In this document: positions 35,498-51,676 of the stretch, one piece after another
How positions within the stretch are numbered: position 1 is the first letter of the stretch
Layout of the letters: each line of letters begins with the position of its first letter
Assembly (NCBI GenBank): GCA_040220235.1
Contig: JAVJTO010000052.1
DNA: 57,678 bases
Source: Coleofasciculus sp. B1-GNL1-01
GTDB taxonomy: Bacteria; Cyanobacteriota; Cyanobacteriia; Cyanobacteriales; Coleofasciculaceae
Reading direction: 5' to 3' (one strand)
Program-made: the position numbers and the translations under genes
Notes under the pieces: generated by a model
The model's input: only the letters and a program-made list of their open reading frames with translations
What the model was told of the DNA's origin: nothing
Database searches by the model: none

Positions 35498-36547
35498 TCA
35501 TGACTCAAACGGCTCAAGCAACGCTTCTACCGTAGTATCCGATACCTGATCAATCTCTAAGATGCGTGAGGCGTCTTGGTATAGATGCCCAATAGAACGA
35601 CGGTAGGCTGGATCATAGTGGTGACTTAGCAATTCTCCGACTAATGTATGCCATTGGTTTGTGTCGATTAAATGATACCAACGCCGAATTGTTTGCCCAC
35701 CGTAGCGCGATTTCAAGAACCCTAGCTTGCGTTTCAAAAGGTCGGGATGGCTGATGAAGTGGGGATACTCGTGCAGCAGCCGTTCGATTCTTACCGCTTG
35801 GGGGAGTTGAATTTCTATACAGTTTGCCTGCTTCATTTGTTGCCAAAGGGAGGGGGGCAAATAACGCTGTCCAATTTTATTGCTTTCGGCTTCTACCCAA
35901 ATTGGCTGACTGGGATCAAAGCGTTGTAATGCCAACAGGAGTAAGGATTCAAACTGTTTTTGCGAGGGTTGAGGAGTTGGTTCATCTTGCCACTGTTGAC
36001 CCAAGAGGGAACCGCGATGATTTGCCAAACCCTCTAAATCAAGGACTTGGACGCCGCGTTGCGCTAACTGGTGTAAAATATAGGTTTTCCCGCTACCTGT
36101 GAAACCGGATAACACCTGAAATGTAAACTGGGGCGGTAACGTTTCGAGTTGCTGACGCACATAAGTGCGGTAGGTTTTATAGCCACCTTCTAGAACAGTC
36201 ACTCGCCAGCCAATTTGATTTAAGACACCAGCCAGACTATGAGAACGTTGACCGCCACGCCAGCAGTACACCAGAGGATGATAGTCTTTGTCTTTAGCGG
36301 CAAAGTGAGACTCAAGATGTTGAGCAATGTTACGAGCAACCAGGGCGGCACCCAGTTTCCGGGCTTGGAAGGGGGAGACTTGCTTGTAAAGCGTTCCCAC
36401 TTTCGCCCGTTGTTCGTCATCGAGGACGGGTAGGTTGATCGCTTGGGGCAGATGATCCTCAGCAAACTCACTGGGGCTGCGAACATCAATAATTTCAGTA
36501 TAGGTTTCTAGCCAGGGTGCTTGAGTGTATGTGAGCGATCGCGCCAT
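35498..36547 (-). CDS. mnmH: tRNA 2-selenouridine synthase
   Basis: Rhodanese motifs IDVRSPSEF and YCWRGGQRS; P-loop GFTGSGKT; HRGS; probable ATG 36547. Confidence 0.93.
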   Translation of the reverse strand: MARSLTYTQAPWLETYTEIIDVRSPSEFAEDHLPQAINLPVLDDEQRAKVGTLYKQVSPFQARKLGAALVARNIAQHLESHFAAKDKDYHPLVYCWRGGQRSHSLAGVLNQIGWRVTVLEGGYKTYRTYVRQQLETLPPQFTFQVLSGFTGSGKTYILHQLAQRGVQVLDLEGLANHRGSLLGQQWQDEPTPQPSQKQFESLLLLALQRFDPSQPIWVEAESNKIGQRYLPPSLWQQMKQANCIEIQLPQAVRIERLLHEYPHFISHPDLLKRKLGFLKSRYGGQTIRRWYHLIDTNQWHTLVGELLSHHYDPAYRRSIGHLYQDASRILEIDQVSDTTVEALLEPFES

Positions 36548-36702
36548 GCTGATTTGTCTAGAGTGGTGGATAAAGTCCCGATTGCCAACCTTTTCTAGTG
36601 TATCGGAAGCCTGAGGTAGGGAGATTGACCACAAGCGACTGGGAGCAACTCTCCAGCATTCGCTATCTTGAATGAAAGGATCATTAAGGGTGAGGATGGG
36701 GC

Positions 36703-38346
36703 GTGTCTTACTTAATTTACGATCCCGATACTCCTAATCAAAAAGTTTATACCTTGGAGTCGGGGATTAATACTATCGGGCGTGAAGACGATAACACAAT
36801 TGTCGTACTTCATGGGTATCTCTCTCGTCACCATGCCCAAATTGTTATTTGCTCAGACTCAGACAGTGTCACATTGACGGATCTGCAAAGTCTCAATGGT
36901 ACGTTTGTTAACGAGTGTAAAATTGAGGAATGTCAAATCAAGCATGGGGATTTAATTCGCTTTGGGAGTGTGTTTTTCAAATTTGTGAAAACCCTTCCCT
37001 CTCCTCAACAAAAACCCCTTAATGAGGATACCTCGAATCTTTCGATTCTCCGGCAGGTTGCGCCTGAGAAGACGCGAATCACGATGCGAGAGTTACTGCA
37101 ACCTGATCAAGCAGAACATTCGGTTCTAAAACTCCGCAACCAAGATGCTCATCAGCGATCGGTTAATAAATTGCAAATTTTGCTAGAGGTGAGCAAACAG
37201 CTTTCCTCCCCCGAAGAACCTGACCGACTGATGCAAAAAATCTTGGATCTGTTGTTTGAGATCATGCAGGTGGATCGGGCAGCAATTTTGATGGTTGATG
37301 AACAGACCGGGAAATTGGAACAGAAAGCGGTGAAACTGCAATCGGATTATCAAGATAATACTCAGTTTTACAGCAAACGGATTGCTGATTTTGTTCGCAA
37401 GCAAGGCAACGGTATCTTAACGGATGATGCCCGAATTGACACATTGTTTAATGATTCAGTCTCGATTCTCAAACAAGGAATTCACGCCGCAATGTGTGTT
37501 CCGCTCAAACCGAGAGATACAGTCATCGGTGTTTTGTATGTGGATAATTTATCGATGACGGCTCTCTATTCTGATGAAGATTTGGAGTTCTTAACCTGTC
37601 TGGCAAACCAAGCCGCGATCGCGATCGAGAATTCTCGCCTTTATACCCAGATGGAGGCGGAGGCGGTGATGCGGGATAAACTAGAACGGTTCTTTCCGCG
37701 AACGGTGAGTCGTAAGCTGCGGGAGGAAGGCAATTTAGAAATTGTTGATACGGAAGTAACAGCGCTGTTTGCAGATATTAGTAACTTTACTAAAATGTCC
37801 TCCCAAATGGAACCTCGGCAAATTATTGAAATGCTCAATGAGTATTTTCAGGTGATGGTTGAGGAGATTGTTTTTCCTTATGAAGGCACATTAGAAAAAT
37901 ATATTGGTGATGCATTATTAGCGGTTTGGGGCGCTCCCTATCGCAAACCCGATGATGTCGATTTAGCGGTAAGAGCCGCGATTGATATGCAATGGGCAGT
38001 TCGCCGTTTAAATCAAGTGTGGATTCAAAGCAAAAGACGACCGATTCAAATTCACATCGGCTTAAATACGGGGAAAGTGGCGGCGGGAAATATCGGTTCG
38101 GCAAAACTGATTCAATATGCCACGATTGGTGATACTACGAATGTGACCAGTCGGATTTGTAATTTAGCCAAACCCAATGAAATTTTAATCGCTCAAAGTA
38201 CGTTAGATAAACTCAATGACCGAACTATTCCTGTAGAAAAAATGCCGCCAATGCGAGTGAAGGGGAAAGCTCAACCGTTAGATCTCTATCGAGTTTTATG
38301 GTATAAAATTAATCAGGATAAAGTAATACAAAACGGAGATAAGTAG
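36703..38346 (+). CDS. cyaD: Adenylate cyclase, FHA-GAF-class III catalytic domain
   Basis: FHA motifs IGR..SRHHA..SLNGT; GAF; FADISNFT, EKYIGDA and IGDTTNVTSR. Architecture matches Anabaena CyaD. Confidence 0.85.
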   Translation: MSYLIYDPDTPNQKVYTLESGINTIGREDDNTIVVLHGYLSRHHAQIVICSDSDSVTLTDLQSLNGTFVNECKIEECQIKHGDLIRFGSVFFKFVKTLPSPQQKPLNEDTSNLSILRQVAPEKTRITMRELLQPDQAEHSVLKLRNQDAHQRSVNKLQILLEVSKQLSSPEEPDRLMQKILDLLFEIMQVDRAAILMVDEQTGKLEQKAVKLQSDYQDNTQFYSKRIADFVRKQGNGILTDDARIDTLFNDSVSILKQGIHAAMCVPLKPRDTVIGVLYVDNLSMTALYSDEDLEFLTCLANQAAIAIENSRLYTQMEAEAVMRDKLERFFPRTVSRKLREEGNLEIVDTEVTALFADISNFTKMSSQMEPRQIIEMLNEYFQVMVEEIVFPYEGTLEKYIGDALLAVWGAPYRKPDDVDLAVRAAIDMQWAVRRLNQVWIQSKRRPIQIHIGLNTGKVAAGNIGSAKLIQYATIGDTTNVTSRICNLAKPNEILIAQSTLDKLNDRTIPVEKMPPMRVKGKAQPLDLYRVLWYKINQDKVIQNGDK

Positions 38347-38517: not shown

Positions 38518-39858
38518 TTAGAGGTTAAAGTAATTTGTAAAATAATCCTGATATAATTGACAGCTTACCTTGACTTGATTAACATCTAAAGTAATTAATC
38601 CCAGGCTTTTCAACTCAAACATAATCTCTTCGTTTAAAAATGCCGGAGACAACAATATAGTTTTAAAAGATTCCATTAAATCAATATTCTGTTTAATTTT
38701 TCTAGATAAATAGCAAAGGTGCGGCTTAAAAATAGCTTGATAAACAACCGCATTTGAAACCAGCTCTTTCAAAGGTACATGGTGCTGTAAGCTATGATAC
38801 AACGCTAGTCTAACCAAATAAGGATATCCGCCTGTGATCAGCATTAACGGGTGCAATTCAGACGGCGTTAGTTTAAATCCATGCCGTTGAGCTAACTCTT
38901 CGACTTCACGCTGATTAAACGGGGGTAACTCAATTGGCACGCCGATATTAAAGGGAGATTGATTAGCTTGTATGGGAATATAAATATCAGTGGAATGAAC
39001 CAGGATAATTCGCAACTTTTGCCAAATCACTAAATCTTTTCCCTTTTCATGCCAGTGACGCAATAGAACCAGAAAATCACGGGAAAGGCTTTGATGTTCA
39101 AACAGTTGATTAATCTCATCTAATCCAAAAATTAGCGGACTATCAAGATTGTTCAAAATATATTCTTGGAAATAAAGGGTACAACTGACTAATGTGCCAA
39201 CATCTTCATCCCAATACTCATTTAATTTAGAGTCTAATCCTAACTGCCGGGTAACATTCGCACACAGCCAGCGCAAGAATTGATTCGTAGACGCCAATCG
39301 GCTAGTTTCAACTTGGTTTAAACTTAAGCGCACAGTCGCCCAATTCTGGGTTTTTCCGTAAGCAAGAATCCGACTGAGGAGAGACGTTTTGCCCATTTTA
39401 CACGGGGCTTTGATGCGAATCAGTGCAGCTTCCTTGAGAATTTCTTGATAACAGGTTTGTTCAAGGTTATGCCGTTCAATGTACAAAGGAGAGTTGAGCG
39501 GAACTTGTCCTTCTGGAGATTCTGAATGTAACTTCTCTAAACCAGTAGAGAGATACTGGTTTTTAGGAATAGAGGCATTGGGGATTTTTTGTTCGAGGAC
39601 AGCACGGCAATTCGTTCGATTAACTTTTTCTCCTAAAACCTCTGATATTAATTTCCATAGATTTGGCGCAACATGTTGACGAATATATTTTTCGGAATAG
39701 TGATTTTCACGAGCGATTTGTACATAAGTTTTAGGCGTTTCTTTTAAAGACTCTTGCAAGAGAACTTTTTGAATAAAACTAAGCCTTTTCCCAGTTTTTT
39801 GATAAATAAAGTTTTCAGTTTGTTGAATAAGGCTGAGTTTAATAGTCATCGATTTCAA
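38518..39858 (-). CDS. wHTH + AAA_35 (STAND-like) protein
   Basis: N-terminal TYVQIA..LWKLISEVLGEKV wHTH; PEGQVP..YIER, KAPCKMGKT, LDEI, SPFNIG and GGYPYL motifs. Confidence 0.85.
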   Translation of the reverse strand: MKSMTIKLSLIQQTENFIYQKTGKRLSFIQKVLLQESLKETPKTYVQIARENHYSEKYIRQHVAPNLWKLISEVLGEKVNRTNCRAVLEQKIPNASIPKNQYLSTGLEKLHSESPEGQVPLNSPLYIERHNLEQTCYQEILKEAALIRIKAPCKMGKTSLLSRILAYGKTQNWATVRLSLNQVETSRLASTNQFLRWLCANVTRQLGLDSKLNEYWDEDVGTLVSCTLYFQEYILNNLDSPLIFGLDEINQLFEHQSLSRDFLVLLRHWHEKGKDLVIWQKLRIILVHSTDIYIPIQANQSPFNIGVPIELPPFNQREVEELAQRHGFKLTPSELHPLMLITGGYPYLVRLALYHSLQHHVPLKELVSNAVVYQAIFKPHLCYLSRKIKQNIDLMESFKTILLSPAFLNEEIMFELKSLGLITLDVNQVKVSCQLYQDYFTNYFNL

Positions 39859-40768
39859 TATTCAATGCACCTCTTTCAATTAGCCATTGCTTTTGGGTTT
39901 GGCTTAAGCCGATGGCATTGGTAAATAGCGCTCCTTTAACTCGACAACCGGATAAATTTACGGATTGGAGTTGGGTGTCTTTTAAGTTGGCATAACGTAA
40001 ATCGGTATCCACTAACACTGTTTTGTCAAGCACAGCCCCTTCTAAATTTGCTTTAAATAGAGAGGCTCTGCTCAAATCAACATCGCTCAAATCTGTATTT
40101 ACAAGGATAGCTAATTCTAAAGCAACCTGTCGCAAAATTGCCCCGGTTAAGTCAGCATCACTTAAATCGGCTTCAACTAAATCCGCTTCGCTTAAGTCTG
40201 CACCACATAAAATTGTTTTGTGGAGTTGCGCTCCTTCCAAGTCAGTCTGACGCAATGAAGCGTTGGTAAGAATGGCTTCTTCCCAGTTGGTTTGACACAG
40301 CTTCGCCTGATTAAAAATTGCCTCGGTGCCATCAACTCCTTTTAAATTCGCTTGGAACAAATCTGCTCCCCTTAAATCAGCGCGGGTTAAACAAGCGATG
40401 TCTAAGCAACTATTCGTGAGATTGGCGGCGTTTAAGCAAGCTGACTGAAGATTAGCATGATTCAAGCGAGCATTACTGAGGTTGGCTTGGCTTAAGCTGG
40501 CTTCACTGAGATTTGCCCACAGCAAGCTGGCATAAACTAAATTTGCTTGGTCTAAATTACTATTTTTTAAGGTAGCTTGGTTTAAATCGCACCAGATAAA
40601 TTTAGCCCGTTTGAGAATACTTTGATTTAAGTCGGCACAACTGAGATTGGCATAACTAAAGTCAGCACCACTCAGATTGACACCACTTAAGGAAATTTGG
40701 TTAAAGCGAATCGATTGAAAGTTTCTTTCGTGAGTTGCATAACGTTGAAGAATGTCTTTTGCCTTCAT
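39839..40768 (-). CDS. Pentapeptide-repeat protein
   Basis: Continuous A(D/N)Lxx repeats; typical N-terminus MKAKDILQRYA..ERNF at ATG 40768; stop overlaps the next gene. Confidence 0.92.
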   Translation of the reverse strand: MKAKDILQRYATHERNFQSIRFNQISLSGVNLSGADFSYANLSCADLNQSILKRAKFIWCDLNQATLKNSNLDQANLVYASLLWANLSEASLSQANLSNARLNHANLQSACLNAANLTNSCLDIACLTRADLRGADLFQANLKGVDGTEAIFNQAKLCQTNWEEAILTNASLRQTDLEGAQLHKTILCGADLSEADLVEADLSDADLTGAILRQVALELAILVNTDLSDVDLSRASLFKANLEGAVLDKTVLVDTDLRYANLKDTQLQSVNLSGCRVKGALFTNAIGLSQTQKQWLIERGALNIEIDDY

Positions 40769-41064
40769 GTTCCGGATATAGGCTGGGGGATATGAATCAG
40801 TAATCGACAATTATTGCAATATATTACATATTTTCGCCATGAGATCTCTGTTTGGTTAACAAGGTAAGGGATTGAATAGGGGATATGTTTCAGTTCAATT
40901 CTATGACTTATAGGTATTGACTAAGATACCCTATTGTGCATTATTAGGATTTGAGCCAAAAATTCTCTATTCAAGATCTGAACTTTAGGGACTATATTTC
41001 TCAACTCTAAGCTGTAATACTAAGACCATTGCCAATGTTGCTTTGACAGATAAGGTTTTAGACT

Positions 41065-41337
41065 ATGAGTGAGCAAAATTCCAAAGGTTCAGGTCATATT
41101 GTTCCCCTGGAATCTCTCAGCTTTGATAGCTTTGGACGTAATCCGGCGACCGATATTGTTTGTGTGACTCCAGTTCGCACTGTGGTTCGACGCGAAGAGG
41201 AAATTGTGCTGATTCGCAAAGTAAGAAAGGTAGAAGAAATCGATGCGAGTCCGGCTTGCCCAATCAATACCACTCAAATGGCTCAAGTTCAACAAGAGGG
41301 CGAAGTAGTCTTTGAGGAACAACAAGTAGAATCGTAA
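41065..41337 (+). CDS. 90-aa protein consisting mainly of a two-Cys 54-aa module shared with the 637-aa protein
   Basis: The module is conserved at protein level with synonymous divergence against 44632-44793, which strongly supports coding status. Confidence 0.9.
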   Translation: MSEQNSKGSGHIVPLESLSFDSFGRNPATDIVCVTPVRTVVRREEEIVLIRKVRKVEEIDASPACPINTTQMAQVQQEGEVVFEEQQVES

Positions 41338-41348
41338 TTCATCTAATG

Positions 41349-41379
41349 AGCCAGATAGGCTGACTGGGTTTATCTGGCT
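41349..41379 (+). terminator. Intergenic stem-loop after the 90-aa gene
   Basis: AGCCAGATA / TATCTGGCT 9-bp stem followed by TCGTTT. Confidence 0.55.
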
Positions 41380-41413
41380 TCGTTTACGTTACAGCGGTTT
41401 GCAACTCAATGAA

Positions 41414-41731
41414 ATGGCAACTAAGCAGAATTTTTCGAGTTTCCAAGATTTAATTCAGAATTCTCCTACGCCGATTTTAGTCAGCTTCTATGCAACCTGG
41501 TGTGGATACTGTAAAATGATGGCTCCCATTTTAGAGCAGGTGAAGACGTCAATGGGAGATCGCATCAAAGTGGTGAAAATAAACACCGAGAAATACCCCA
41601 AACTAGCCTCTAAGTATGAGATTCAGTCGTTGCCGACTTCAATTTTATTTATCGAAGGTGAACAAGCCAGTCGCATCAAGGGAGTGATGCAAACGCCAAA
41701 ACTGATTGAATATTTAACAAAATTCCTTTAA
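41414..41731 (+). CDS. Thioredoxin (y-type-like) with WCGYC active site
   Basis: FYATWCGYC, VVKIN and IQSLPT motifs; ATG 41414. Confidence 0.92.
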   Translation: MATKQNFSSFQDLIQNSPTPILVSFYATWCGYCKMMAPILEQVKTSMGDRIKVVKINTEKYPKLASKYEIQSLPTSILFIEGEQASRIKGVMQTPKLIEYLTKFL

Positions 41732-41744
41732 ACTCTAAAATTGA

Positions 41745-42815
41745 TTGGGACTGTATTCCAGAATCAATGGGGGTTGTACATTGAAGCGTCTTGCCAAAAT
41801 CCTTAAATCAATCGGCGTTGTTTTCGGTTTTATCGTCAGCAGTTTTGGACTAATGATAATTTTAGGCTTAATTTTACCTGCTGTTTTGGAATACAAGCGA
41901 AATCTGGCGATTAATTATAATCGACAAGCCGAAACGCTTTATCAGGCAAGACAGTACGAACAGGCAATTGAGATTTACAACAAAGCGATTCAAGCTTATC
42001 CAAATTTGGCGTTGTCCTACTACAATCGTGGCAATTGCTTTTTTGCCTTAAATGACTATCAAGAAGTCTTGCAAAACTATAATGATGCGCTGAAACTGAA
42101 TTCTAGCTATCCACAAGCCTATAATAACCGGGGAAATACGTACTATTTACTAGGGGATTATCATCAAGCGATCGCGGATTATACGCAAGCGATTAAATGT
42201 AATCCTAAGTATGAGCGGGCTTACTATAATCGCGGGAATGCTTACTATAATTTAAGCGAGTATCAACAAGCGCGGTTAGACTTTAGTCATGCCATTCAAC
42301 TCAATCCTGATTATGCTGAAAGTTATAATAATTTAGGGAATACCTATATAGCCTTAAATCAATATCAACAAGCGATTGACAGCTACGATAAAGCGATCGC
42401 GATCAATCCTAACTATGCTCAAGCCTATAATAATCGCGGCAATAGCTACTACTATTTAAATAACGTCGTGCAAGCCATTAGCAACTATGCCAAAGCCATT
42501 ACGCTGGATAGTCAAAATCATGAAGCATATAATAATCGCGGCAATGCTTACTATGCCCTACAAAAATATAAAGAAGCACTCAAGAATTACGACCAAGCTT
42601 TAACCCTTTGTCCGAATCATATTGAATCCTATTATAATCGCGGCTTAGTTCAGATTAAACTGAAGCAAAAACAAAAGGCGATCGCGGACTTGCAGAAAGC
42701 GGTTCAGTTGGCGCAGCAGCAGGAGAATCAGCTAGTGCTGGAGGTGATTAAAGACGCCATTGAGAAACTGCAAATGAATCAAGAGATTCCCAATGTTTTA
42801 CCCAGTCAAAGCTAA
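41745..42815 (+). CDS. Membrane-anchored TPR protein (start possibly TTG 41781)
   Basis: N-terminal hydrophobic helix, then about 8 AYNNRGNAYY-type TPRs. Confidence 0.9.
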   Translation: MGLYSRINGGCTLKRLAKILKSIGVVFGFIVSSFGLMIILGLILPAVLEYKRNLAINYNRQAETLYQARQYEQAIEIYNKAIQAYPNLALSYYNRGNCFFALNDYQEVLQNYNDALKLNSSYPQAYNNRGNTYYLLGDYHQAIADYTQAIKCNPKYERAYYNRGNAYYNLSEYQQARLDFSHAIQLNPDYAESYNNLGNTYIALNQYQQAIDSYDKAIAINPNYAQAYNNRGNSYYYLNNVVQAISNYAKAITLDSQNHEAYNNRGNAYYALQKYKEALKNYDQALTLCPNHIESYYNRGLVQIKLKQKQKAIADLQKAVQLAQQQENQLVLEVIKDAIEKLQMNQEIPNVLPSQS

Positions 42816-42906
42816 GGTGTAGAGACGTGCCATGGCGCGTCTGTAGGGGCGGATTTCACTAAACCCGCCCCTTGAGTGTTTAGATTAAAGAGAGTAGGAG
42901 AGGAAA

Positions 42907-44820
42907 ATGAATTTATCCAAAACATCTGGCGAAGATCTAACACCCGGAACCGTCTATCTTCAGGATTATCAATCGGATCAACCCAGTAATCTGTATACCT
43001 TAGACTTAGTGACAGGGAACACCAAATTAATTGGTGCGATCGCCACCTCCGTAACCGATATTGCTTTTGTCGATTCCCAGCTTTATGGACTCGATCAAAC
43101 TGATGATGGTCAAACCACATTATTCCTCAATATTAACCCCACCACTGGGGAAGCCACAGTGATTGGTGATATTGGCTTTGCGGTTGCCGGTTTAGCCTAT
43201 CACCACCAGCGCCAGACTCTCTATGCTAGCAGTGCCAAACAATTAATTTCCATTAATCCCGCCACCGGAAAAGGGACACCCGTGGTAACCATTAAGGATC
43301 GAGAACGCAACTGTGGTGAAGTCACTTTTGCGGCTGATGGCATCGCTTATATTACCCTAATTGGTTATGACCACCAGAAATTCTTAGCCACCTGTGATCT
43401 CGATACAGGTTCAGTCAATCTTATTGGCAATACTGGCTTCCCTGATCTTGGCAGTATGGACTTTATTGGTGATACTCTTTATGGCGTTACGGGTAATTTC
43501 TTTAATTTAGGTAAAGATGGTCAACTCATCCGTATTAATCCTCAAACAGGTACAGGAACCTTAGTCACCATGACTGAACCGAGAGGGCGTTGGGCAGGAC
43601 TTACGGTTTATCAACCTGTGACCCAATCAACCCCTCAACCAACCACACCGACAACTACGATTACTCCGGAGAAATCCATGACTCTATTAACCATTGATAC
43701 CCAAGACCATTGCTATATTATTGACCAAGGTGCTATGGAACACCTACAGTCTAATGTGGCAAACTCAATTCGCTTAGACCAAGGAACGTATACCATAAAA
43801 ATTGCTAGTGGTCGCTACAGTTACGCTGAGGATAAAGAGCAAGGCGAACCCTTTGTCTTACTCTGGATCTATGGTATAGATGGCAGTACGTTTGTTAATA
43901 AAAACACGGGCTTTGAAACTGGGGCAACGTGGACAACATTGAATGGCTATGATGACCCCTTAAGTTTAGAGGTCAAAGATAAAGCGGTTGTTTGTGCCTT
44001 ATTCTTTGATATCAATAAAACCGATAACAGTGGCTTAATTACCCTATCCATTGCAGACAAAAAATCGACGACAACGCCTCAAACCCTAACCGTTGATAGT
44101 AAAACCAATTGTCATTTATTGAATCCGGACTACTTGAGGAGTCTCCAGCAATGGCAGACCAACTATATTGATCTAGAACCGGGAACTTATAAAGTGACTA
44201 TTCGCGAAGGAAATGCCCAGTATTGGTCAGGAGAACAAAAGTTTAAATTAGAACCTTGGGCGATCCTTTGGGTCAAAGGGGGCAAATTCATTACTAAACT
44301 CACAGGTATTGAAGTTGAACAAAGCTGGCTGTCGCTGAATGGGTATGAGGATTTTATCCCTCTTGAGGTCAAAGAAAAGACAACGATTTGCGGATTATTC
44401 TTCGATACCTACAAAGAGGATAACCAAGGACAAGTTGTTTTAGCCATTGAACCCGTTAGCGTTACTCACTTAATCGAAGAAAAAGAAAAAGTGAAAAATA
44501 AGGTGATGTCTGATTCCGATTCATCACCAGAAACCCCGTCAGATCAATCGGGTAAAAAGGTTGAAGCTGAAGTTGATTACTCTTACCGTAGCCAACGCCC
44601 TGGTTCTGTCAGTGTAGGAAATTTAGCCACATTAAGTTTTGACAGTTTCGGACGTGATCCGGCGAGAGATATTGTCTGTGTTACTCCGGTTCGTACTGTA
44701 GTTCGACGGGAGGAAGAAATCACAATTATTCGCAAAGTCAGGAAGGTTGAAGAGGTTGATGCGAGTCCGGCTTGTCCTGTGAATACCACTCAAGTTTCCA
44801 GAGAAACAGTCGGCGAATAA
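42907..44820 (+). CDS. Multidomain protein: beta-propeller, Pro/Thr linker, two tandem beta-sandwich (LecA-like by inference) domains, C-terminal two-Cys module
   Basis: Repeated L..I(N/D)P.TG blades; duplicated about 125-aa domain with EP..LW, LNGY.D and FFD...DN.G; GGAG/GAGG SD. Confidence 0.85.
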   Translation: MNLSKTSGEDLTPGTVYLQDYQSDQPSNLYTLDLVTGNTKLIGAIATSVTDIAFVDSQLYGLDQTDDGQTTLFLNINPTTGEATVIGDIGFAVAGLAYHHQRQTLYASSAKQLISINPATGKGTPVVTIKDRERNCGEVTFAADGIAYITLIGYDHQKFLATCDLDTGSVNLIGNTGFPDLGSMDFIGDTLYGVTGNFFNLGKDGQLIRINPQTGTGTLVTMTEPRGRWAGLTVYQPVTQSTPQPTTPTTTITPEKSMTLLTIDTQDHCYIIDQGAMEHLQSNVANSIRLDQGTYTIKIASGRYSYAEDKEQGEPFVLLWIYGIDGSTFVNKNTGFETGATWTTLNGYDDPLSLEVKDKAVVCALFFDINKTDNSGLITLSIADKKSTTTPQTLTVDSKTNCHLLNPDYLRSLQQWQTNYIDLEPGTYKVTIREGNAQYWSGEQKFKLEPWAILWVKGGKFITKLTGIEVEQSWLSLNGYEDFIPLEVKEKTTICGLFFDTYKEDNQGQVVLAIEPVSVTHLIEEKEKVKNKVMSDSDSSPETPSDQSGKKVEAEVDYSYRSQRPGSVSVGNLATLSFDSFGRDPARDIVCVTPVRTVVRREEEITIIRKVRKVEEVDASPACPVNTTQVSRETVGE

Positions 44821-44860: not shown

Positions 44861-45060
44861 GTAGGGGCGACCCGCTGCATCAATGAACAATACTTATCCA
44901 CTCAATTGACTCGGGTCGCCCTATCTTTACCCATCGGTAACAGTTGGGGCGACTCGCTGCATCAATAAACAATCCCCATCCACTCAATAAACTCGGGTCG
45001 CCTCATTTTCACCCCTCAGTAATAGATAATGTGTATTGCCGTTTATGCAAAAACAACATG
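44861..45060 (+). repeat. Two tandem 82-bp GTAG hairpin units plus leader; third copy at 46258-46375
   Basis: Stem GGGCGACCCG / CGGGTCGCCC with conserved loop CTGCATCAAT..AACAA..TCCA.TCAAT. Confidence 0.88.
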
Positions 45061-46236
45061 TCACGTCAACCTCAACCCTCAGCAACTCATCGCCAACCCA
45101 ATTCAATTATTCCTCTAGAAATTGAATCCCTCGATGAATTTGACCAGTATCTTAAAGACAAACAAAGTCTTGCCAATGTTGTTTTTCAAAGCTTGGATTT
45201 AACGGCATATTCTGAAATATTAAAAAAATACGACTTAACCAATACCGTCTTTTTAGGCTGTCGTCTGACACCCGATACTCTAACCTATATTTTAAACACA
45301 GGTGGCTTAGTCTTTCCACCCTTAACCTATGTTCCATACAATGCTTATCGTAATCGTCTTTATTCTCCCGATGAATTAATGGGAGAGTATCAAGTTGGAG
45401 TAACAGGAAGCTATCAGAATACTCTGGATGGTCGAATTTATAACCATTATGTCAAACAGGGCAAAGATCACCCCCCTAGTATTCTAGAAACCCTCGCCCA
45501 ACGGTTACATGATCATGCGATTACCGATGCTTTAGAAGAACTGATTGATGGGCGAAACGTTGTGGCAATTATGGGTGGACATTCCCTGAAACGGAGTGAT
45601 CCCAACTATATAAAAGTGGCGCGAATTTCTGGAGAATTGACCCGTCGCGGCTATTTAATGACCAGTGGTGGCGGACCCGGTGCCATGGAAGCCACCCATT
45701 TAGGTGCATGGTTTGCCTATCGTTCCCAGGCGGAATTAGAAGATGCGGTGGAGATTCTGGCGACTGCACCGATTTATAAACCGATGGAACAATGGTTAGA
45801 TACGGCGTTTGCGGTGAAACAAAAATACCCACTTCAAGATAAAAATGGGCAATATCCAGAGAGTTTAGGCATTCCCACCTGGTTATATGGTCATGAACCG
45901 CCCACCATTTTCGCCACCCACATTGCCAAACTCTTTGCCAATAGTATCCGGGAAGAAGGGTTACTCGCGATCGCCAAATATGGGGTAATCTATTCTCCAG
46001 GGAGTGCCGGAACCATTCAAGAAATCTTCCAAGACGCTTGTCAGAACCATTACAACTCCTTTGGTGTGGTGAGTCCGATGATTTTCTTAGGCGAAGATTA
46101 CTGGAAATGTAAAAAACCCGTGTTTCCGTTATTGGCGCAATTAGCGGCGGGGAGAGAATACAGTTCACTGTTGGCGATTACCGATTCCGTAGATGAGGTG
46201 ATTCAACAAATTGAACAATTTGCCGCCACATTATAA
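45058..46236 (+). CDS. LOG/SLOG-family nucleotide-binding protein
   Basis: VAIMGG, TSGGGPGAMEA and PGSAGTIQE (PGGxGTxxE-like) motifs; ATG 45058 (the longer ORF runs through the repeat). Confidence 0.85.
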   Translation: MSRQPQPSATHRQPNSIIPLEIESLDEFDQYLKDKQSLANVVFQSLDLTAYSEILKKYDLTNTVFLGCRLTPDTLTYILNTGGLVFPPLTYVPYNAYRNRLYSPDELMGEYQVGVTGSYQNTLDGRIYNHYVKQGKDHPPSILETLAQRLHDHAITDALEELIDGRNVVAIMGGHSLKRSDPNYIKVARISGELTRRGYLMTSGGGPGAMEATHLGAWFAYRSQAELEDAVEILATAPIYKPMEQWLDTAFAVKQKYPLQDKNGQYPESLGIPTWLYGHEPPTIFATHIAKLFANSIREEGLLAIAKYGVIYSPGSAGTIQEIFQDACQNHYNSFGVVSPMIFLGEDYWKCKKPVFPLLAQLAAGREYSSLLAITDSVDEVIQQIEQFAATL

Positions 46237-46257
46237 CTAATTTTGTGTTCAAGATCG

Positions 46258-46375
46258 GTAGGGGCGACCCGCTGCATCAATTAACAACACTCGTCCATTC
46301 AATTAACTCGGGTCGCCCTATCTCCACTTTCGGTAACAGAGACTATTTCTTTGCCGTTTATTCAAAAACAACATG
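46258..46375 (+). repeat. Third copy of the hairpin-leader unit
   Basis: Matches 44943-45060, including TTGCCGTTTAT.CAAAAACAACATG. Confidence 0.88.
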
Positions 46376-48025
46376 ACCAATTCAACCCATTCCATTCCGC
46401 CCGTCGATTTAGTCATCGTCATCGACACCAGTCCCTCAATGCGAGATGAAGCCCAAGCCCTAAGTCAAGCCGCCGCTGCTGCAATTAAAGCCGCCAGTTC
46501 TAGCTGTCCGTCCGATTTACGAACTGAATGGTTTGGCATCGAAGGGACTTGGAAAAATACCAATTTTAGCCGCCGAATTCGCGACTATCTAATCCAAGAG
46601 TGCAACGCGCCGGAAACTGAAATTCGGGCAAGAAAACGGGGGGAACTCAAAGATGCAGGCGCCCAAGAAGACGCCGCCCGTACCATTGAAGATATTGCCA
46701 ATCACTTTAACTGGCGCGAGGATGCAGCGAGGGCAATCTTTTACCTAGGGGATGAAGCCTTAGAAGCCGGAGGTTCTCAAACCACCCAAGAGGATATTGA
46801 CGCCGCTAATCGCGCCATATCCCAGGCAAAAACTGCCAATATCACGATTCACACGTATTTAGGTAAGTCGAAGAGTAAACATCGAGACAGTATTCAAAGC
46901 GAATATGCCAGAGTCGCCTCAGAAACTGGGGGACAAGCCTTTACTGACCAAGACACCCTCAAAGGCTTTGAAGATGTTCTAGAAAAAGTCATTTGTGGCA
47001 GTTGTGCATCGCAACCAGAAACACCCTCAAAACGTCCAATTCGCCAGAAAACACTGAACATTGGCACATTCAACCTTTATAATCTGGTTCTGCCCAATGT
47101 CACCTATTACGACACCAATAAATATAGCCCAGAACTTTATCAGCGCAAAAAAACCTGGATTGCCCGTCAAATCGAACAAATGGATGCCGATATTATCGGG
47201 TTCCAGGAACTGTTTCACGAGGAAGCCTTGCGGGAAATCCTCACCGAAACCCCAGACTGTGCCAATGCTAATCTAATTACCGCCAATCCCACCGGGGACA
47301 AACCAACTGTCGCGTTGCTGTCGAAAGTTCCGGTTCTCAACCACCAAATCTTCACCGAATTCCCCGAAAAGGCACGTCTAGACATGGAAGGGACAGCCAT
47401 TCCTCTGCATAGCTTTTCCCGTCCCCTGTTATCGGTGGATCTTGCCTTAAGTGATACGGTTGAATGTACTGTATTTGTGGCTCATCTTAAGTCTAAACGC
47501 CCTATCATACCTGAAGATGCCGATCGCAGTGACCCCGTGGAAAAAGCCAAGGGACAAGCCCGGGCGCTACTGCGTCGGGCGGCTGAAGCTACCGCCTTAC
47601 GGGTGATTCTCATGGAAACGCTGCAAAACCGCAAACGTCCAGTAATCGTAATCGGGGATTTAAATGATAGCGGTTTAGCCGTAACCAGTAAAATTATCTC
47701 CGGTGAACCCCCTTGGGAAAAACTAAGATTTGCCCAAAAGCAGGAAATCTGGGACGTACTGCTTTATAGTGTCAAGGACATTCAGGCGCGTCAGAGTTAC
47801 GGTGATTTCTACTACACCCATATTTACAACGGGTACTACGAGAGTTTGGATCATATTCTCGTGAGTGAAGAATTGGTGGCACAAAATCCGGATCGCATTG
47901 GTAAGGTGACGTATGTTTCTGTCTATAACGATCATCTCATCGATGAAACCTTGAGTTACGAAGACATGGAAAAATGGAAGTCGGATCACGGACAAGTCGT
48001 TGCCTCGATTCGACTGGAATCTTAA
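46373..48025 (+). CDS. vWA domain fused to an endonuclease/exonuclease/phosphatase (EEP) domain
   Basis: MIDAS motif DLVIVIDTSPSM; EEP motifs TFNLYN, DIIGFQE, HLKS, GDLND, LDHI and SDH. Confidence 0.88.
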   Translation: MTNSTHSIPPVDLVIVIDTSPSMRDEAQALSQAAAAAIKAASSSCPSDLRTEWFGIEGTWKNTNFSRRIRDYLIQECNAPETEIRARKRGELKDAGAQEDAARTIEDIANHFNWREDAARAIFYLGDEALEAGGSQTTQEDIDAANRAISQAKTANITIHTYLGKSKSKHRDSIQSEYARVASETGGQAFTDQDTLKGFEDVLEKVICGSCASQPETPSKRPIRQKTLNIGTFNLYNLVLPNVTYYDTNKYSPELYQRKKTWIARQIEQMDADIIGFQELFHEEALREILTETPDCANANLITANPTGDKPTVALLSKVPVLNHQIFTEFPEKARLDMEGTAIPLHSFSRPLLSVDLALSDTVECTVFVAHLKSKRPIIPEDADRSDPVEKAKGQARALLRRAAEATALRVILMETLQNRKRPVIVIGDLNDSGLAVTSKIISGEPPWEKLRFAQKQEIWDVLLYSVKDIQARQSYGDFYYTHIYNGYYESLDHILVSEELVAQNPDRIGKVTYVSVYNDHLIDETLSYEDMEKWKSDHGQVVASIRLES

Positions 48026-48330
48026 GCCAATCTTTAATTTGATTGACAAAAAGACGGTAAATCGGTTGACTCGTTCTCAGAGTAAACGAACGCCGTCCAG
48101 TCTTCGTTTAGGCTTCATGGTTATAGCGCTACGCGCTAGGCAATAGGCAATAGGTAACGTGAAACGTATTACCCGGTCAGATTTGTAGGGTGGGCAAGGC
48201 TTATAAGCCGTGAAATCCTAATATTATCGTTCCTTGTTCTTGCCCACCTCACAGTAACGTGAAACCTATTACCAGTACAGCAAGATATGAGTTGACGATT
48301 TACCCTTTATTCACGTTCAGGAGAAAAATT

Positions 48331-50040
48331 ATGACGACTCAATCCCCCCTCTCATCACAACGACGGGTTGGCATTATTCCCGCCTTAAAAGCCGATCGCC
48401 AATCTAACACATGGCACACGGTTAAATTTGATCCCCCGTTTCCTCAGGATACCCAAGTCGCCGTTATCCCGATGACGCAAACCTATAACGGACCCGAAAC
48501 CCCAGGGTTAAGACTTCGCAATGTTACCCCAGAAGGATTCGAGATTCGCTTCGATGAAATTGTCGCCCGGGGACGTTCGGCGGATGGGGCGCATCTGGAT
48601 GAAGCTGTCGCCTGGATTGCCTATCCTGTATCTACCCAAGAGGATGATACGCCAGGAACACCAGGAGTCCCTACCTTTCCCCCCGAATCTCTTGATATAA
48701 CCACCGATACAATTTATCAGCTACTGTGGGAACACGATGAAAATCAATTCTCAGTGAGTCCCCGCAACAGTTCAGGGGACTGGGAAAACCCAGACGCTGA
48801 TATTTTATTAGATGAACAGGTAAAAGCAGCAGGTCAACGCGAAATTGATTTAGCCACTCATCCTCTCTTCTATAAAGTAAATGAAGCGAAACTATTTGAC
48901 AACGATCGCACCTATTCCAGCTTTATACAACTTTTAGATAACTATGCCATTCGTGTGGCTGAACCCGAAAAGACGGTCGAGGAAGAAGTCCAAGAACAGC
49001 AAGCGTTTTTAGCAAAAATCATTAACACCAAGCCTATGCAGCTTGCCCGGACTTATATCAATCAAAACTTGGGCGAAAGTCTTTCGGAAGAAGAATTCCG
49101 CACCAATCTACAGCGGATCTGGTTTGAACTTTATACGAATCACTATGGCGGCAAATCGACTGAGTTTGCCTCTGGCTTTGAACATGTATTTGTCGGCGAA
49201 GGTAAATTTGATATCCATTCGGGAAGTAAAAAAGAAAACTTTGGCAAAATTTCCGGTTATCACTCATGGGTGAAGTTTTACCTGGATGAAAAGAATCAGC
49301 GGGTCAATTATTTAGGCTACAAGTATGACTTAAAAGGAGAGAATGGTTCCCAAAATCCCAATGTTGTCACCTTGCAGATGACCAAGAAAGTAATTGATAT
49401 GCAAGGAAACGTAATTGCCAAACTGTTTAAACCCAAAGGCGGCTTCTTCGTTGGTCCGAGTCCCGAATGTGAAATGGCAATGGCAACGGTTGCCTATTAC
49501 GAAAGTGTTCATGGCAAAATTACGGACAAGCGCCGGATTACCATTAATGACGCTACCTATAATTTAGTCTTGTATCGCAGCACGAATCCCAATGGCAGTC
49601 GTGGTGAATTCATTCGTTCCTTTTTTCCCATTTTCTTGGCAATGGATGATGGCGAAACACCGGACACTGATGAACCTGTTGTTGAGCCGATTGATGAAGT
49701 GACAAACAACAATGGTGATGTGGTCATTTTCGCCACCCAACCCAACCCAGAAGGCAGTGATGAAGGGAATGAGTGGGTTGAGTTAAAGAATACCACCAGT
49801 AATCCGATTGATTTATCGGGTTGGAAACTGCAAGATAAGTTAGACCGTCCAGAAGATATTAGTGGCACGCTGCAACCGCAGGAAGTCAAGCGATTTACCA
49901 TTTCGCGAGCTAATTATACGACTATGCAATTGGGGAACAGTTCGGGTATTATTGCCTTAATTGATTCTGCTGGAAATGAGGTAGCCATGGTTAGTTATGG
50001 TTCCGCTAGTTCGGGTGAAGTGATTCGGTTTGTGTCCTAA
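48331..50040 (+). CDS. Lectin-like N-terminal domain + EndoU/XendoU endoribonuclease + lamin-tail domain
   Basis: SGFEHVFVGE, GYHSWVKFY and KPKGGFFVGPSPECEMA (EndoU); NPEGSD..EWVELKN..DLSGWKL (LTD); AGGAG SD before ATG 48331. Confidence 0.85.
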   Translation: MTTQSPLSSQRRVGIIPALKADRQSNTWHTVKFDPPFPQDTQVAVIPMTQTYNGPETPGLRLRNVTPEGFEIRFDEIVARGRSADGAHLDEAVAWIAYPVSTQEDDTPGTPGVPTFPPESLDITTDTIYQLLWEHDENQFSVSPRNSSGDWENPDADILLDEQVKAAGQREIDLATHPLFYKVNEAKLFDNDRTYSSFIQLLDNYAIRVAEPEKTVEEEVQEQQAFLAKIINTKPMQLARTYINQNLGESLSEEEFRTNLQRIWFELYTNHYGGKSTEFASGFEHVFVGEGKFDIHSGSKKENFGKISGYHSWVKFYLDEKNQRVNYLGYKYDLKGENGSQNPNVVTLQMTKKVIDMQGNVIAKLFKPKGGFFVGPSPECEMAMATVAYYESVHGKITDKRRITINDATYNLVLYRSTNPNGSRGEFIRSFFPIFLAMDDGETPDTDEPVVEPIDEVTNNNGDVVIFATQPNPEGSDEGNEWVELKNTTSNPIDLSGWKLQDKLDRPEDISGTLQPQEVKRFTISRANYTTMQLGNSSGIIALIDSAGNEVAMVSYGSASSGEVIRFVS

Positions 50041-50073
50041 AGGATTGTTTTTTGTCGGAGTGGGTTTCAACCA

Positions 50074-50151
50074 TTCAACTTAAGCTAAAAAATTTCCAAT
50101 ACCTTGAGATAAACCCCTCCCTAACCCTCCCCTTGCCAAGGGGAGGGAACC
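50074..50151. repeat. Partial copy of the 9569-9755 MITE including the CCCTCCCCTTGCCAAGGGGAGGG hairpin
   Basis: TCAACTTAAGCTA..CAATACCTTGAG..CCCTCCCTAACCCTCCCCTTGCCAAGGGGAGGGAAC is shared with about 9577-9653. Confidence 0.75.
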
Positions 50152-50203
50152 AGGAGAAAACTAATTCTTCCATTATCCGCTGTAAAAAAAAGAGAGGTTC
50201 CAC

Positions 50204-51676
50204 ATGTCAATCAACGGCACAATGATGCAATATTTCCACTGGTATATTGATCCCAATCTGATCCTGTGGAATGACGTTAAAACCAAGGCGCAAGAATTAG
50301 CCGATGCGGGATTCACCGCGTTATGGCTACCTCCCGCCTACAAGGGAATGGGAGGAACGTATGATGTCGGCTACGCCGTGTACGATATGTATGATCTGGG
50401 GGAATTTGATCAACATGGTACTGTTCGCACTAAATACGGCACTCTTGAGCAATATTTAGCCGCAATCAACGCCTTACACGCATCAGGAATACAAGTTTAT
50501 GGGGATACTGTCTTAAATCATCGCATGGGAGGTGAAGGGACAGAAATTGCCCGCGCTACTCCCTTTAATGAATATGATCGGCTGCATCCTAAAGGATGGA
50601 CAAGGGATATTAAAGCCTACACCCATTTTAAGTTTCCGGGTCGTCAGGGCAAGTATTCTAATTTTGAATGGCATTGGTGGCATTTTGATGCTGTTGATTA
50701 CGACGATTACACCAAGGAACCCAATACGCTTTATCTCTTTGAGGGGAAAGTCTTTGATGATTATGTGGCATTAGAAAAAGGAAACTTTGCCTATTTAATG
50801 GGATGTGATCTGGATTTCCAGAGTCAAGAGGTGCGCGATGAAGTGACTCGTTGGGGTAAATGGTATCTGGATACCACAGGCGCTGATGGTTTCCGTCTGG
50901 ATGCGATTAAACATATTTCATCCTGGTTTTTCCCGCAATGGTTAGATGAGATGCGGTATCATGCGGGCAAAGATTTGTTTGTGGTGGGTGAATATTGGTA
51001 CAACAATATTGACACCTTACATTGGTATATCAACGCCGTTAATGGCAAAATGTCGGTATTTGATGTGCCACTCCACTACAATTTCTATTACGCCAGTCGT
51101 TCTGGTGGACATTATGACATGGGGAGTATTCTCAATGGCACTTTGATGCAGCAACGTCCCACCCATGCGGTTACATTTGTAGAAAACCATGATTCCCAAC
51201 CGTTACAGTCATTAGAAGCGCCAGTAGAACCCTGGTTTAAGCCCTTAGCTTACGCGATCATTTTATTGCGCCGCGAGGGGTATCCTTGTGTCTTTTATGC
51301 CGATTATTACGGTACAGAATATGAGGATTACGGCAAAGATGGCAATCGGTACAAGATTTTTCTTCCCTCTCACCGTTGGATTATTGACAAATTACTCTAT
51401 GCTCGGAAACAGTATGCTTATGGGGATCAATACGATTACTTTGATCACTACAATACAATTGGTTGGACGCGCTTAGGGGATCACGCTCATCCGAAAGCCA
51501 TGGCGGTGATTATGAGTGATAGTGTGCCAGGTTACAAGTGGATGGAAGTGGGTAAACCGAATGCCAAGTTCTATGATTTAACCGAACATATAAAAGAACC
51601 CATTTATACCAATGAATGGGGATGGGCAGAATTTCGGTGTAACGGCGGTTCTGTTTCCGTTTGGGTTCAAGAATAA
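50204..51676 (+). CDS. amyA: Cytoplasmic alpha-amylase, GH13 (subfamily 5-like)
   Basis: NGTMMQYFHWY, GFRLDAIKH, GEYW and FVENHD motifs. Confidence 0.93.
   Translation: MSINGTMMQYFHWYIDPNLILWNDVKTKAQELADAGFTALWLPPAYKGMGGTYDVGYAVYDMYDLGEFDQHGTVRTKYGTLEQYLAAINALHASGIQVYGDTVLNHRMGGEGTEIARATPFNEYDRLHPKGWTRDIKAYTHFKFPGRQGKYSNFEWHWWHFDAVDYDDYTKEPNTLYLFEGKVFDDYVALEKGNFAYLMGCDLDFQSQEVRDEVTRWGKWYLDTTGADGFRLDAIKHISSWFFPQWLDEMRYHAGKDLFVVGEYWYNNIDTLHWYINAVNGKMSVFDVPLHYNFYYASRSGGHYDMGSILNGTLMQQRPTHAVTFVENHDSQPLQSLEAPVEPWFKPLAYAIILLRREGYPCVFYADYYGTEYEDYGKDGNRYKIFLPSHRWIIDKLLYARKQYAYGDQYDYFDHYNTIGWTRLGDHAHPKAMAVIMSDSVPGYKWMEVGKPNAKFYDLTEHIKEPIYTNEWGWAEFRCNGGSVSVWVQE

Follow-up and report, generated by a model that had tools for sequence, protein, structure and literature searches.

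A two-cysteine module that occurs both as a free protein and as a tag on shuffled binding-domain proteins in cyanobacteria, together with a dedicated thioredoxin

We analyzed a stretch of 57,678 nucleotides from Coleofasciculus sp. B1-GNL1-01 (GenBank assembly GCA_040220235.1, contig JAVJTO010000052.1), referred to below as the window, in which a module with two cysteines is encoded twice within one gene cluster, once in a small free protein with a variable N terminus and an acidic tail and once as the C-terminal tag of a large multidomain protein. The same arrangement recurs in loci of some other filamentous cyanobacteria, where the module is attached to many different cargo domains, keeps its cysteine pair almost without exception and is often accompanied by a dedicated thioredoxin. 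In our favored interpretation, which we judge to be evenly poised, the free protein would be the subunit of a homotypic, thiol-controlled scaffold that is made in the cytoplasm and co-assembles tagged proteins with glycan-binding heads.

The two 54-codon copies in the window are identical at 48 of 54 residues and at 79.6% of their DNA positions, and both place the cysteines 32 residues apart (Cys33/Cys65 in the free copy and Cys591/Cys623 in the tag). Their codons differ by 20 synonymous and six non-synonymous changes, with 25 of the 33 base differences at third positions. The Nei-Gojobori method (NG86) gave a non-synonymous rate (dN) of 0.084 and a synonymous rate (dS) of 1.14, and the resulting dN/dS of 0.073 (Fisher p 2e-10) at this dS marks the pair as an ancient duplication that strong selection has constrained. 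The same dS rejects a recent duplication or gene conversion. A previous sequence-only reading of this stretch had pointed to the shared module, to the spacing of its cysteines, to purifying selection on the peptide (proposing the dN/dS calculation reported here) and to the thioredoxin that follows; all of these are borne out, although that reading left out the 356-residue membrane-anchored TPR gene that separates the thioredoxin gene from the large gene. This genome holds two copies of the module only, and the closest named relatives are from Coleofasciculus.

Database searches placed the module in no named family, and the sequence-only reading had recognized it from none. No match was found in Pfam, NCBIfam, PADLOC, PHROGs, PDB sequences or the Atlas; the free protein gave no Pfam match at E<=1, a 65-sequence module profile gave none among PDB sequences at E<=10, and PADLOC gave none for the six window proteins tested. 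A single PHROGs match for one module homologue (E 0.034) was dismissed, and no relative of the module was found in the viral contigs searched. The searches returned 110 small relatives (53 representatives, among which one was spurious) as well as 149 longer proteins, with 120 of the latter among the matches listed. The assembled set contains 337 distinct module proteins, of which 327 could be anchored and the other 10 are excluded from the counts. All that bear an organism name are cyanobacterial, Scytonema sp. NIES-4073 and Lyngbya aestuarii BL J being two carriers that are in culture. Their spread is patchy: at the level of the phylum 3 of 401 genomes have the module, at that of the order 8 of 401, and within the genus two of the six other genomes.

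At its minimum the module consists of a core that begins shortly before the first cysteine and ends shortly after the second. Among the anchored proteins (152 free, 129 C-terminally tagged, 40 N-terminally tagged and six with an internal module), both cysteines are present at the same spacing in 320, and the pair is kept in every class: 150/152 free proteins, 125/129 C-tagged, 39/40 N-tagged and 6/6 internal, which for the tags amounts to 170 of 175. The 31 residues between the cysteines are nearly invariant and fixed in length, Cys65-Pro66 is invariant, and the first cysteine lies in a C[VLIF]xPxR motif in 317 of 327. The LSFDSF motif upstream is absent from some tags, and free and fused copies share the one fixed-length core.

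Gene order was examined in 52 loci from named genomes, some of which share one genome or are cut by contig ends. A free gene is present in 44, a tagged gene in 41, an operon-type thioredoxin in 30 (one unrelated thioredoxin being excluded) and a TPR gene in 30; an alpha-amylase in the same-strand run occurs in 10, an EEP nuclease in eight and a Tle1-like gene in four. Wherever free and tagged genes occur together the free genes, one to three in number, come first (32 of 32 loci). This, with the retention of the cysteine pair in homologues, left intact two features whose absence would have spoken against the sequence-only reading.

The cargo is shuffled. The 175 tagged proteins show more than 20 architectures, with the module N-terminal, C-terminal or internal (terminal in 169), and their recurrent domains are a five-bladed propeller, a pair of beta-sandwich domains that we call Y domains, fibro-slime/PA14, VWA and LecA-like domains. 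Lectin-type cargo had been predicted from the window, and the PA14 and LecA-like domains agree with this at unequal strength. The fibro-slime cargo passes its cut-off (TIGR02148, 91-107 bits); the VWA matches fall below theirs; and the LecA-like cargo matches PA-IL (PF07828) weakly and below the curated cut-off in 4 of 15 members (best E 0.0036), with PllA as its sole PDB match (E 0.92). For the window protein, the fold-search matches of the whole 637-residue model were filled by the propeller (best Z 18.1, root mean square deviation 3.6 over 222 aligned residues, 2h2n). The Y domain was blank in a PDB sequence search and gave no profile match to the LecA-like cargo, and its likeness to PA-IL/LecA is a lead only, from an Atlas match (0.90) to a cluster in which PA-IL accounts for 17%.

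The thioredoxin of the window scores 105 bits against TIGR01068 (cut-off 96.8), and 24 of the 30 operon thioredoxins form one clade (support 100/99), with the closest paralogue in this genome lying outside it. The first active-site cysteine is present in all 30; 20 have CxxC, mostly CGYC, and 10 have CxxS. CGYC is the motif of E. coli DsbC, according to the portion of PMC4960241 consulted, and this hints that the enzyme may be an isomerase and not a reductase. This dedicated paralogue is lost together with the module. Four genomes of the same genus retain the flanking genes and lack the free gene, the thioredoxin and the tagged gene; their left junctions are alike, so the four absences may reflect a single loss. 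In a fifth relative a different deletion runs across the free gene and the thioredoxin, and the tagged gene is broken. The TPR gene is intact in all five and is therefore not strictly part of the system, and the VWA-EEP and EndoU genes are retained in only two of the four.

The Y domain, present in 50 of 401 genomes, also gave us a view of loci without the module. In all 18 module-less loci that were fetched, the same cargo ends in a long rod in place of the module. This rod has a 31-residue repeat with a hydrophobic period of 3.88 and under 1% Pro/Gly, and no rod was found in module loci. Its terminus carries a cysteine pair 27 residues apart in 120 of 120 sequences, and the second of these cysteines reads CVxPxR in 119 of 120, the motif found at the first cysteine of the module. 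Members of the rod family (P0258-P0377; loci L115-L124, L133 and L134, e.g. L117:8341-10878) have propeller, VWA or Y heads on a rod of about 550-650 residues, and this widespread cyanobacterial family is a candidate filament. At three further loci (L127:6811-9305, L129:7380-10624 and L130:6786-12635), a free gene for a single Y domain is followed by a protein composed of a signal peptide, a PstS-like domain, a membrane helix, in some cases DUF4912, and a Y domain, which appears to be a second arrangement of a free domain plus a fused copy.

We propose that the module is a homotypic assembly unit and that the free protein, encoded first and often by two or three paralogues, would make up the bulk of an oligomer or fibre. 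Into this scaffold would be built larger proteins with the module at either end or internally, whose glycan- or surface-binding heads would be displayed on flexible linkers. The two cysteines would lock neighboring chains by disulfides, which the dedicated thioredoxin would form, shuffle or open, and because the parts appear to be kept in the cytoplasm, locking might occur upon oxidation or cell rupture. More specifically, and only tentatively, a charged strand of about 45 residues may polymerize into a protein fibre or lattice, acquire inter-chain disulfides through its own isomerase-like thioredoxin and recruit strand-bearing proteins at either end; it would be unlocked in the cytoplasm, oxidation or rupture would set a lectin-decorated matrix, and the rod with its CVxPxR motif would be a second, more widespread version.

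Structure prediction gave the module no confident fold. The AlphaFold2 (AF2) monomer of the free protein has a predicted local distance difference test score (pLDDT) of 56, and in the 637-residue protein the propeller and both Y domains are confident and the tag is below 50. Turn residues (G/N/D/P) occur only 8 times in 4991 positions between residues 37 and 59 of the module, and 13 of the 34 core residues are charged. Parallel in-register amyloid motifs have a charge-poor core that is able to stack, whereas the charges of this core would stack on themselves. Because turn residues are nearly absent and the core is this highly charged, both an in-register amyloid and a beta-hairpin are disfavored, and the beta-hairpin suggested in the sequence-only reading is not supported. 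The module may instead form an extended antiparallel strand; self-pairing at registers 98 and 100 would place Cys33 opposite Cys65 of the next chain, with about seven salt bridges and one clash.

Three features of the proteins suggest that the parts of the cluster are produced and retained in the cytoplasm. A hydrophobic N-terminal segment is absent from 173 of the 175 tagged proteins, the two exceptions having a membrane segment followed by basic residues; more K/R follow the membrane segment of the TPR protein in 21 of 30, with uncertainty in the start codons; and the Y domain elsewhere sits behind the membrane helix of the signal-peptide PstS-like proteins. PA14, LecA-like and VWA domains usually act outside the cell, and release by lysis would reconcile this with the cytoplasmic signs.

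The stem-loop that follows the free gene folds better than its shuffles (0/200 equally well) and is unique in the genome rather than a copy of a genomic repeat. Strong hairpins lie downstream of 15/42 last free genes, 17/63 tagged genes, 3/31 thioredoxin genes and 4/31 TPR genes, which gives mild support to a greater abundance of the free protein. Codon-bias tests for high expression of the free protein were uninformative, one being flat (79th percentile), and promoter and terminator counts were close to shuffle levels. Of the earlier proposal that a stem-loop enriches the mRNA of the small gene, the stem-loop itself is thus real and the higher level is not established by these tests.

Several observations weigh against the scaffold. 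The tags are just slightly closer to their own free partner (0.84, against 0.79), and the own partner is the best in only 14 of 53. Hairpins after the last free gene are barely commoner than after tagged genes, and the TPR gene outlives the loss of the module. The second active-site cysteine is missing from the CxxS thioredoxins, 10 of the 30, which qualifies the redox control proposed in the sequence-only reading; in addition, a reducing cytoplasm disfavors disulfides. The tree shows just one swap between module and rod (support 89), the two tails give an insignificant profile match (probability 0.4%), and the rod-type genes have no adjoining thioredoxin, TPR or free module gene. The antiparallel charge register is not significant against shuffles (best register p 0.15, two registers p 0.066), and for a competing parallel arrangement, offset by 6, p is 0.044. 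Finally, AF2 finds no fold for the module either free or as a tag, a result that obligate assembly and a disordered tag would both lead one to expect.

We considered whether the module might instead be an adaptor of a conflict or cell-death system, similar to the effector-associated domains (EADs), that works within a small or nucleated signaling complex and connects sensors of glycans with effectors that are hydrolases (EEP nuclease, EndoU, Tle1-like, amylase). Its patchy presence, its repeated loss and the hydrolases nearby would suit such a role, as would four tagged proteins with signaling-type domains, namely TPR repeats (P0142 and P0242), a weak Death_3 match (P0145) and TIR with a weak TRADD-N match (P0153). 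All four have lost the first cysteine, and in these variants the module has possibly been re-used as a signaling adaptor; their loci were not found, a search for the TPR-repeat fusion yielding 12 loci, none with the module. However, they make up just 4 of 175 tagged proteins, so that the likeness to conflict-system adaptors drawn in the sequence-only reading holds for these and not for the rest. The nuclease is on no tagged protein, the operons lack a nucleoside triphosphatase (NTPase) core, and PADLOC was blank for the window proteins tested. An AAA_35 NTPase does lie near several loci, but AAA_35 has 42 matches in this genome and its proximity was therefore not counted. EADs, moreover, are described as fused and mostly all-alpha in the part of PMC7159879 consulted. 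On balance we regard an EAD-like adaptor as unlikely. A sorting tag seems to us quite unlikely; it would direct cargo into a route of export or surface attachment, the free protein would be a pilot or chaperone, the TPR protein and thioredoxin would be handlers and the cargo would act as a sheath or mat adhesin. Fibro-slime/PA14, LecA-like and VWA domains typically belong to surface proteins, signal peptides are lacking and the tag is mostly terminal, but it may stand at either end or internally, unlike linear secretion signals, the free protein is all tag, and TPR genes are kept without the module. No transporter, protease or modifying enzyme, of the kind that would also accompany a RiPP (ribosomally synthesized and post-translationally modified peptide) precursor, recurs among the 52 loci.

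Cys-Pro is a known heme motif. The invariant Cys65-Pro66 could accordingly belong to a cofactor or redox-sensor domain in which the cysteines bind metal or heme and the module regulates or dimerizes each protein with no scaffold, and it fits with this that one locus is flanked by a heme peroxidase and a catalase-like gene and that three loci have a free gene and a TPR gene between nifV and nifB. Against it, there are just two cysteines, 32 residues apart, and no conserved histidine; the long near-invariant stretch between them exceeds the needs of a ligand loop, and tandem sets of two or three free genes are left unexplained. We consider a cofactor role improbable. Fusion and fission are frequent in these loci, which might suggest that the tags are non-functional by-products of duplication of, or fusion with, a small neighboring gene, yet the strong constraint between the two window copies, the retention of both cysteines in nearly all tags and the loss or breakage of the tagged gene wherever the free gene is lost largely refute this very improbable explanation. 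The thiol-controlled scaffold remains the interpretation that we prefer.

Among known systems, endospore appendages (ENAs) of Bacillus offer a close parallel. In the sections of PMC11362473 and PMC12357932 consulted, the L-ENA ena3 cluster and F-ENA are described with a stand-alone subunit, ExsL with a fused Ena-core, tip proteins, disulfide cross-links and no secretion signal. ENA clusters thus resemble the present ones in having a stand-alone subunit and a fused copy of the subunit domain together in a cluster, an arrangement present here in the 32 loci with both. By those accounts the ENA subunit is a DUF3992 protein that AF2 models well, whereas the module has neither a DUF3992 nor a PDB match; identity between fused and free copies is about 80% here and 17% for ExsL; and spores and collagen stalks are lacking here, where a thioredoxin is encoded in the cluster. 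EADs are portrayed in the part of PMC7159879 consulted as small, non-enzymatic, terminal domains in adjacent genes of filamentous cyanobacteria with predicted homotypic coupling. The module is likewise small, non-enzymatic, mostly terminal and found in adjacent genes. In that account, however, EADs are fused to the core and effectors of NTPase systems and are mostly helical, whereas here the operon begins with a free copy, binding domains form the cargo, a cysteine pair and a thioredoxin are present and an NTPase core is lacking. No NTPase was found among the 175 tagged architectures, and no existing EAD or Death-like profile in Pfam or NCBIfam matches the module. The cluster would, by analogy, work most like ENA clusters and EAD coupling, yet it lacks defining features of both.

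In Streptomyces chaplins, too, a small domain with two cysteines exists both in a short stand-alone form and in long fused forms, and these co-assemble. Chaplins are hydrophobic, Sec-exported and sortase-anchored, whereas the module has the highly charged core described above, no signal peptide and no Pfam match. The likeness to LecA/PA-IL and fibro-slime/PA14 concerns the cargo heads and not the module. Fm7001 and All4981 are filament-forming, coiled-coil-rich proteins that make cytoplasmic polymers in filamentous cyanobacteria, as set out in the main text of PMC7002697, which makes no mention of propeller or VWA domains in the portion consulted. They are compared here by description and not by sequence with the rod that takes the place of the module; the rod is a long Pro/Gly-poor repeat, and its hydrophobic period is 3.88 and not the heptad 3.5.

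Neither the module nor the Y domain nor the substitute rod has a family name, and what is new is the family and its parts list; the logic is familiar and the mechanism is our inference. No description of the cluster was found in the open-access literature, a scope outside which lie subscription papers and supplements, and the module might be listed in the source data of PMC7159879. If free and tagged chains do co-assemble, they would represent a new class of bacterial polymer in mat- and crust-forming cyanobacteria with built-in display of binding domains, and the module would serve at either terminus as a short portable tag, possibly one that is thiol-switched. The system is compact, with one protein of 75-90 residues, one thioredoxin and natural pairs of strains with and without it within one genus. 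Its features in the window are collected in the table.

Table. Features of the module cluster and accessory genes in the window.
Feature	Position	Strand	Details
Free module protein (proposed scaffold subunit)	41065..41337	+	90 residues; no family match
Module, free copy: upstream LSFDSF motif and Cys-to-Cys core	41116..41277	+	CVxPxR at Cys33 (codon 41161-41163); Cys65 codon 41257-41259
Stem-loop after free gene (terminator-like or 3' stabilizer)	41348..41380	+	z -3.2
Dedicated thioredoxin, WCGYC active site	41399..41731	+	TIGR01068; likely start ATG 41414
TPR protein, N-terminal transmembrane segment	41745..42815	+	356 residues; frequent neighbor, intact in module-less relatives
Tagged protein: propeller, two Y domains, low-confidence linker, module	42907..44820	+	637 residues
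Five-bladed beta-propeller (DUF4394/DUF6923 repeats), no catalytic assignment	42940..43620	+	Strand pattern, fold search
Two copies of the unnamed beta-sandwich (Y domain) of about 125 residues, D-x(4)-D-N-x-G motif at end	43678..44466	+	
Module, tag copy	44632..44793	+	Cys591 codon 44677-44679; Cys623 codon 44773-44775
Accessory: VWA fused to EEP nuclease, untagged	46373..48025	+	Same VWA tagged in other loci
Accessory: alpha-amylase, no evident signal peptide	50204..51676	+	Kept in relatives without module

Downstream of the tagged gene, the window contains a hydrolase-like run (44944-51676) of SLOG/LOG-like, VWA-EEP nuclease, EndoU and alpha-amylase genes that is deleted variably in relatives; its EndoU protein also has a lamin-tail domain and an unassigned N-terminal domain. 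An 82-nucleotide palindromic intergenic repeat occurs in three copies (44861-44942, 44943-45024 and 46258-46339) near the end points of the deletions in relatives. Upstream, divergent AAA_35 NTPase and pentapeptide-repeat genes on the minus strand (38518-40810) have the same layout in another module locus, L022, and are absent from all five relatives that lack the free gene. Beyond these, the genes for the tRNA 2-selenouridine synthase MnmH and an FHA-GAF-adenylate cyclase (35498-38346) are ordinary.

Three features of other module loci may be added. Where the TPR and free module genes lie within a nif cluster (L037, L038:8954-10267 and L041), the tagged genes of such genomes are at a separate locus where seen (L039, L042 and L044). 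A family of helical proteins with Trp-rich C-terminal repeats is encoded downstream of free genes (L060:1173-2576 and L064:5792-7030); one member has an N-terminal membrane segment, and the L060 member has no Pfam or NCBIfam match. In five Lyngbya-type loci (L031:16815, L032, L035, L036 and L059), the cluster is followed by a gene for a double Kunitz-domain protein.

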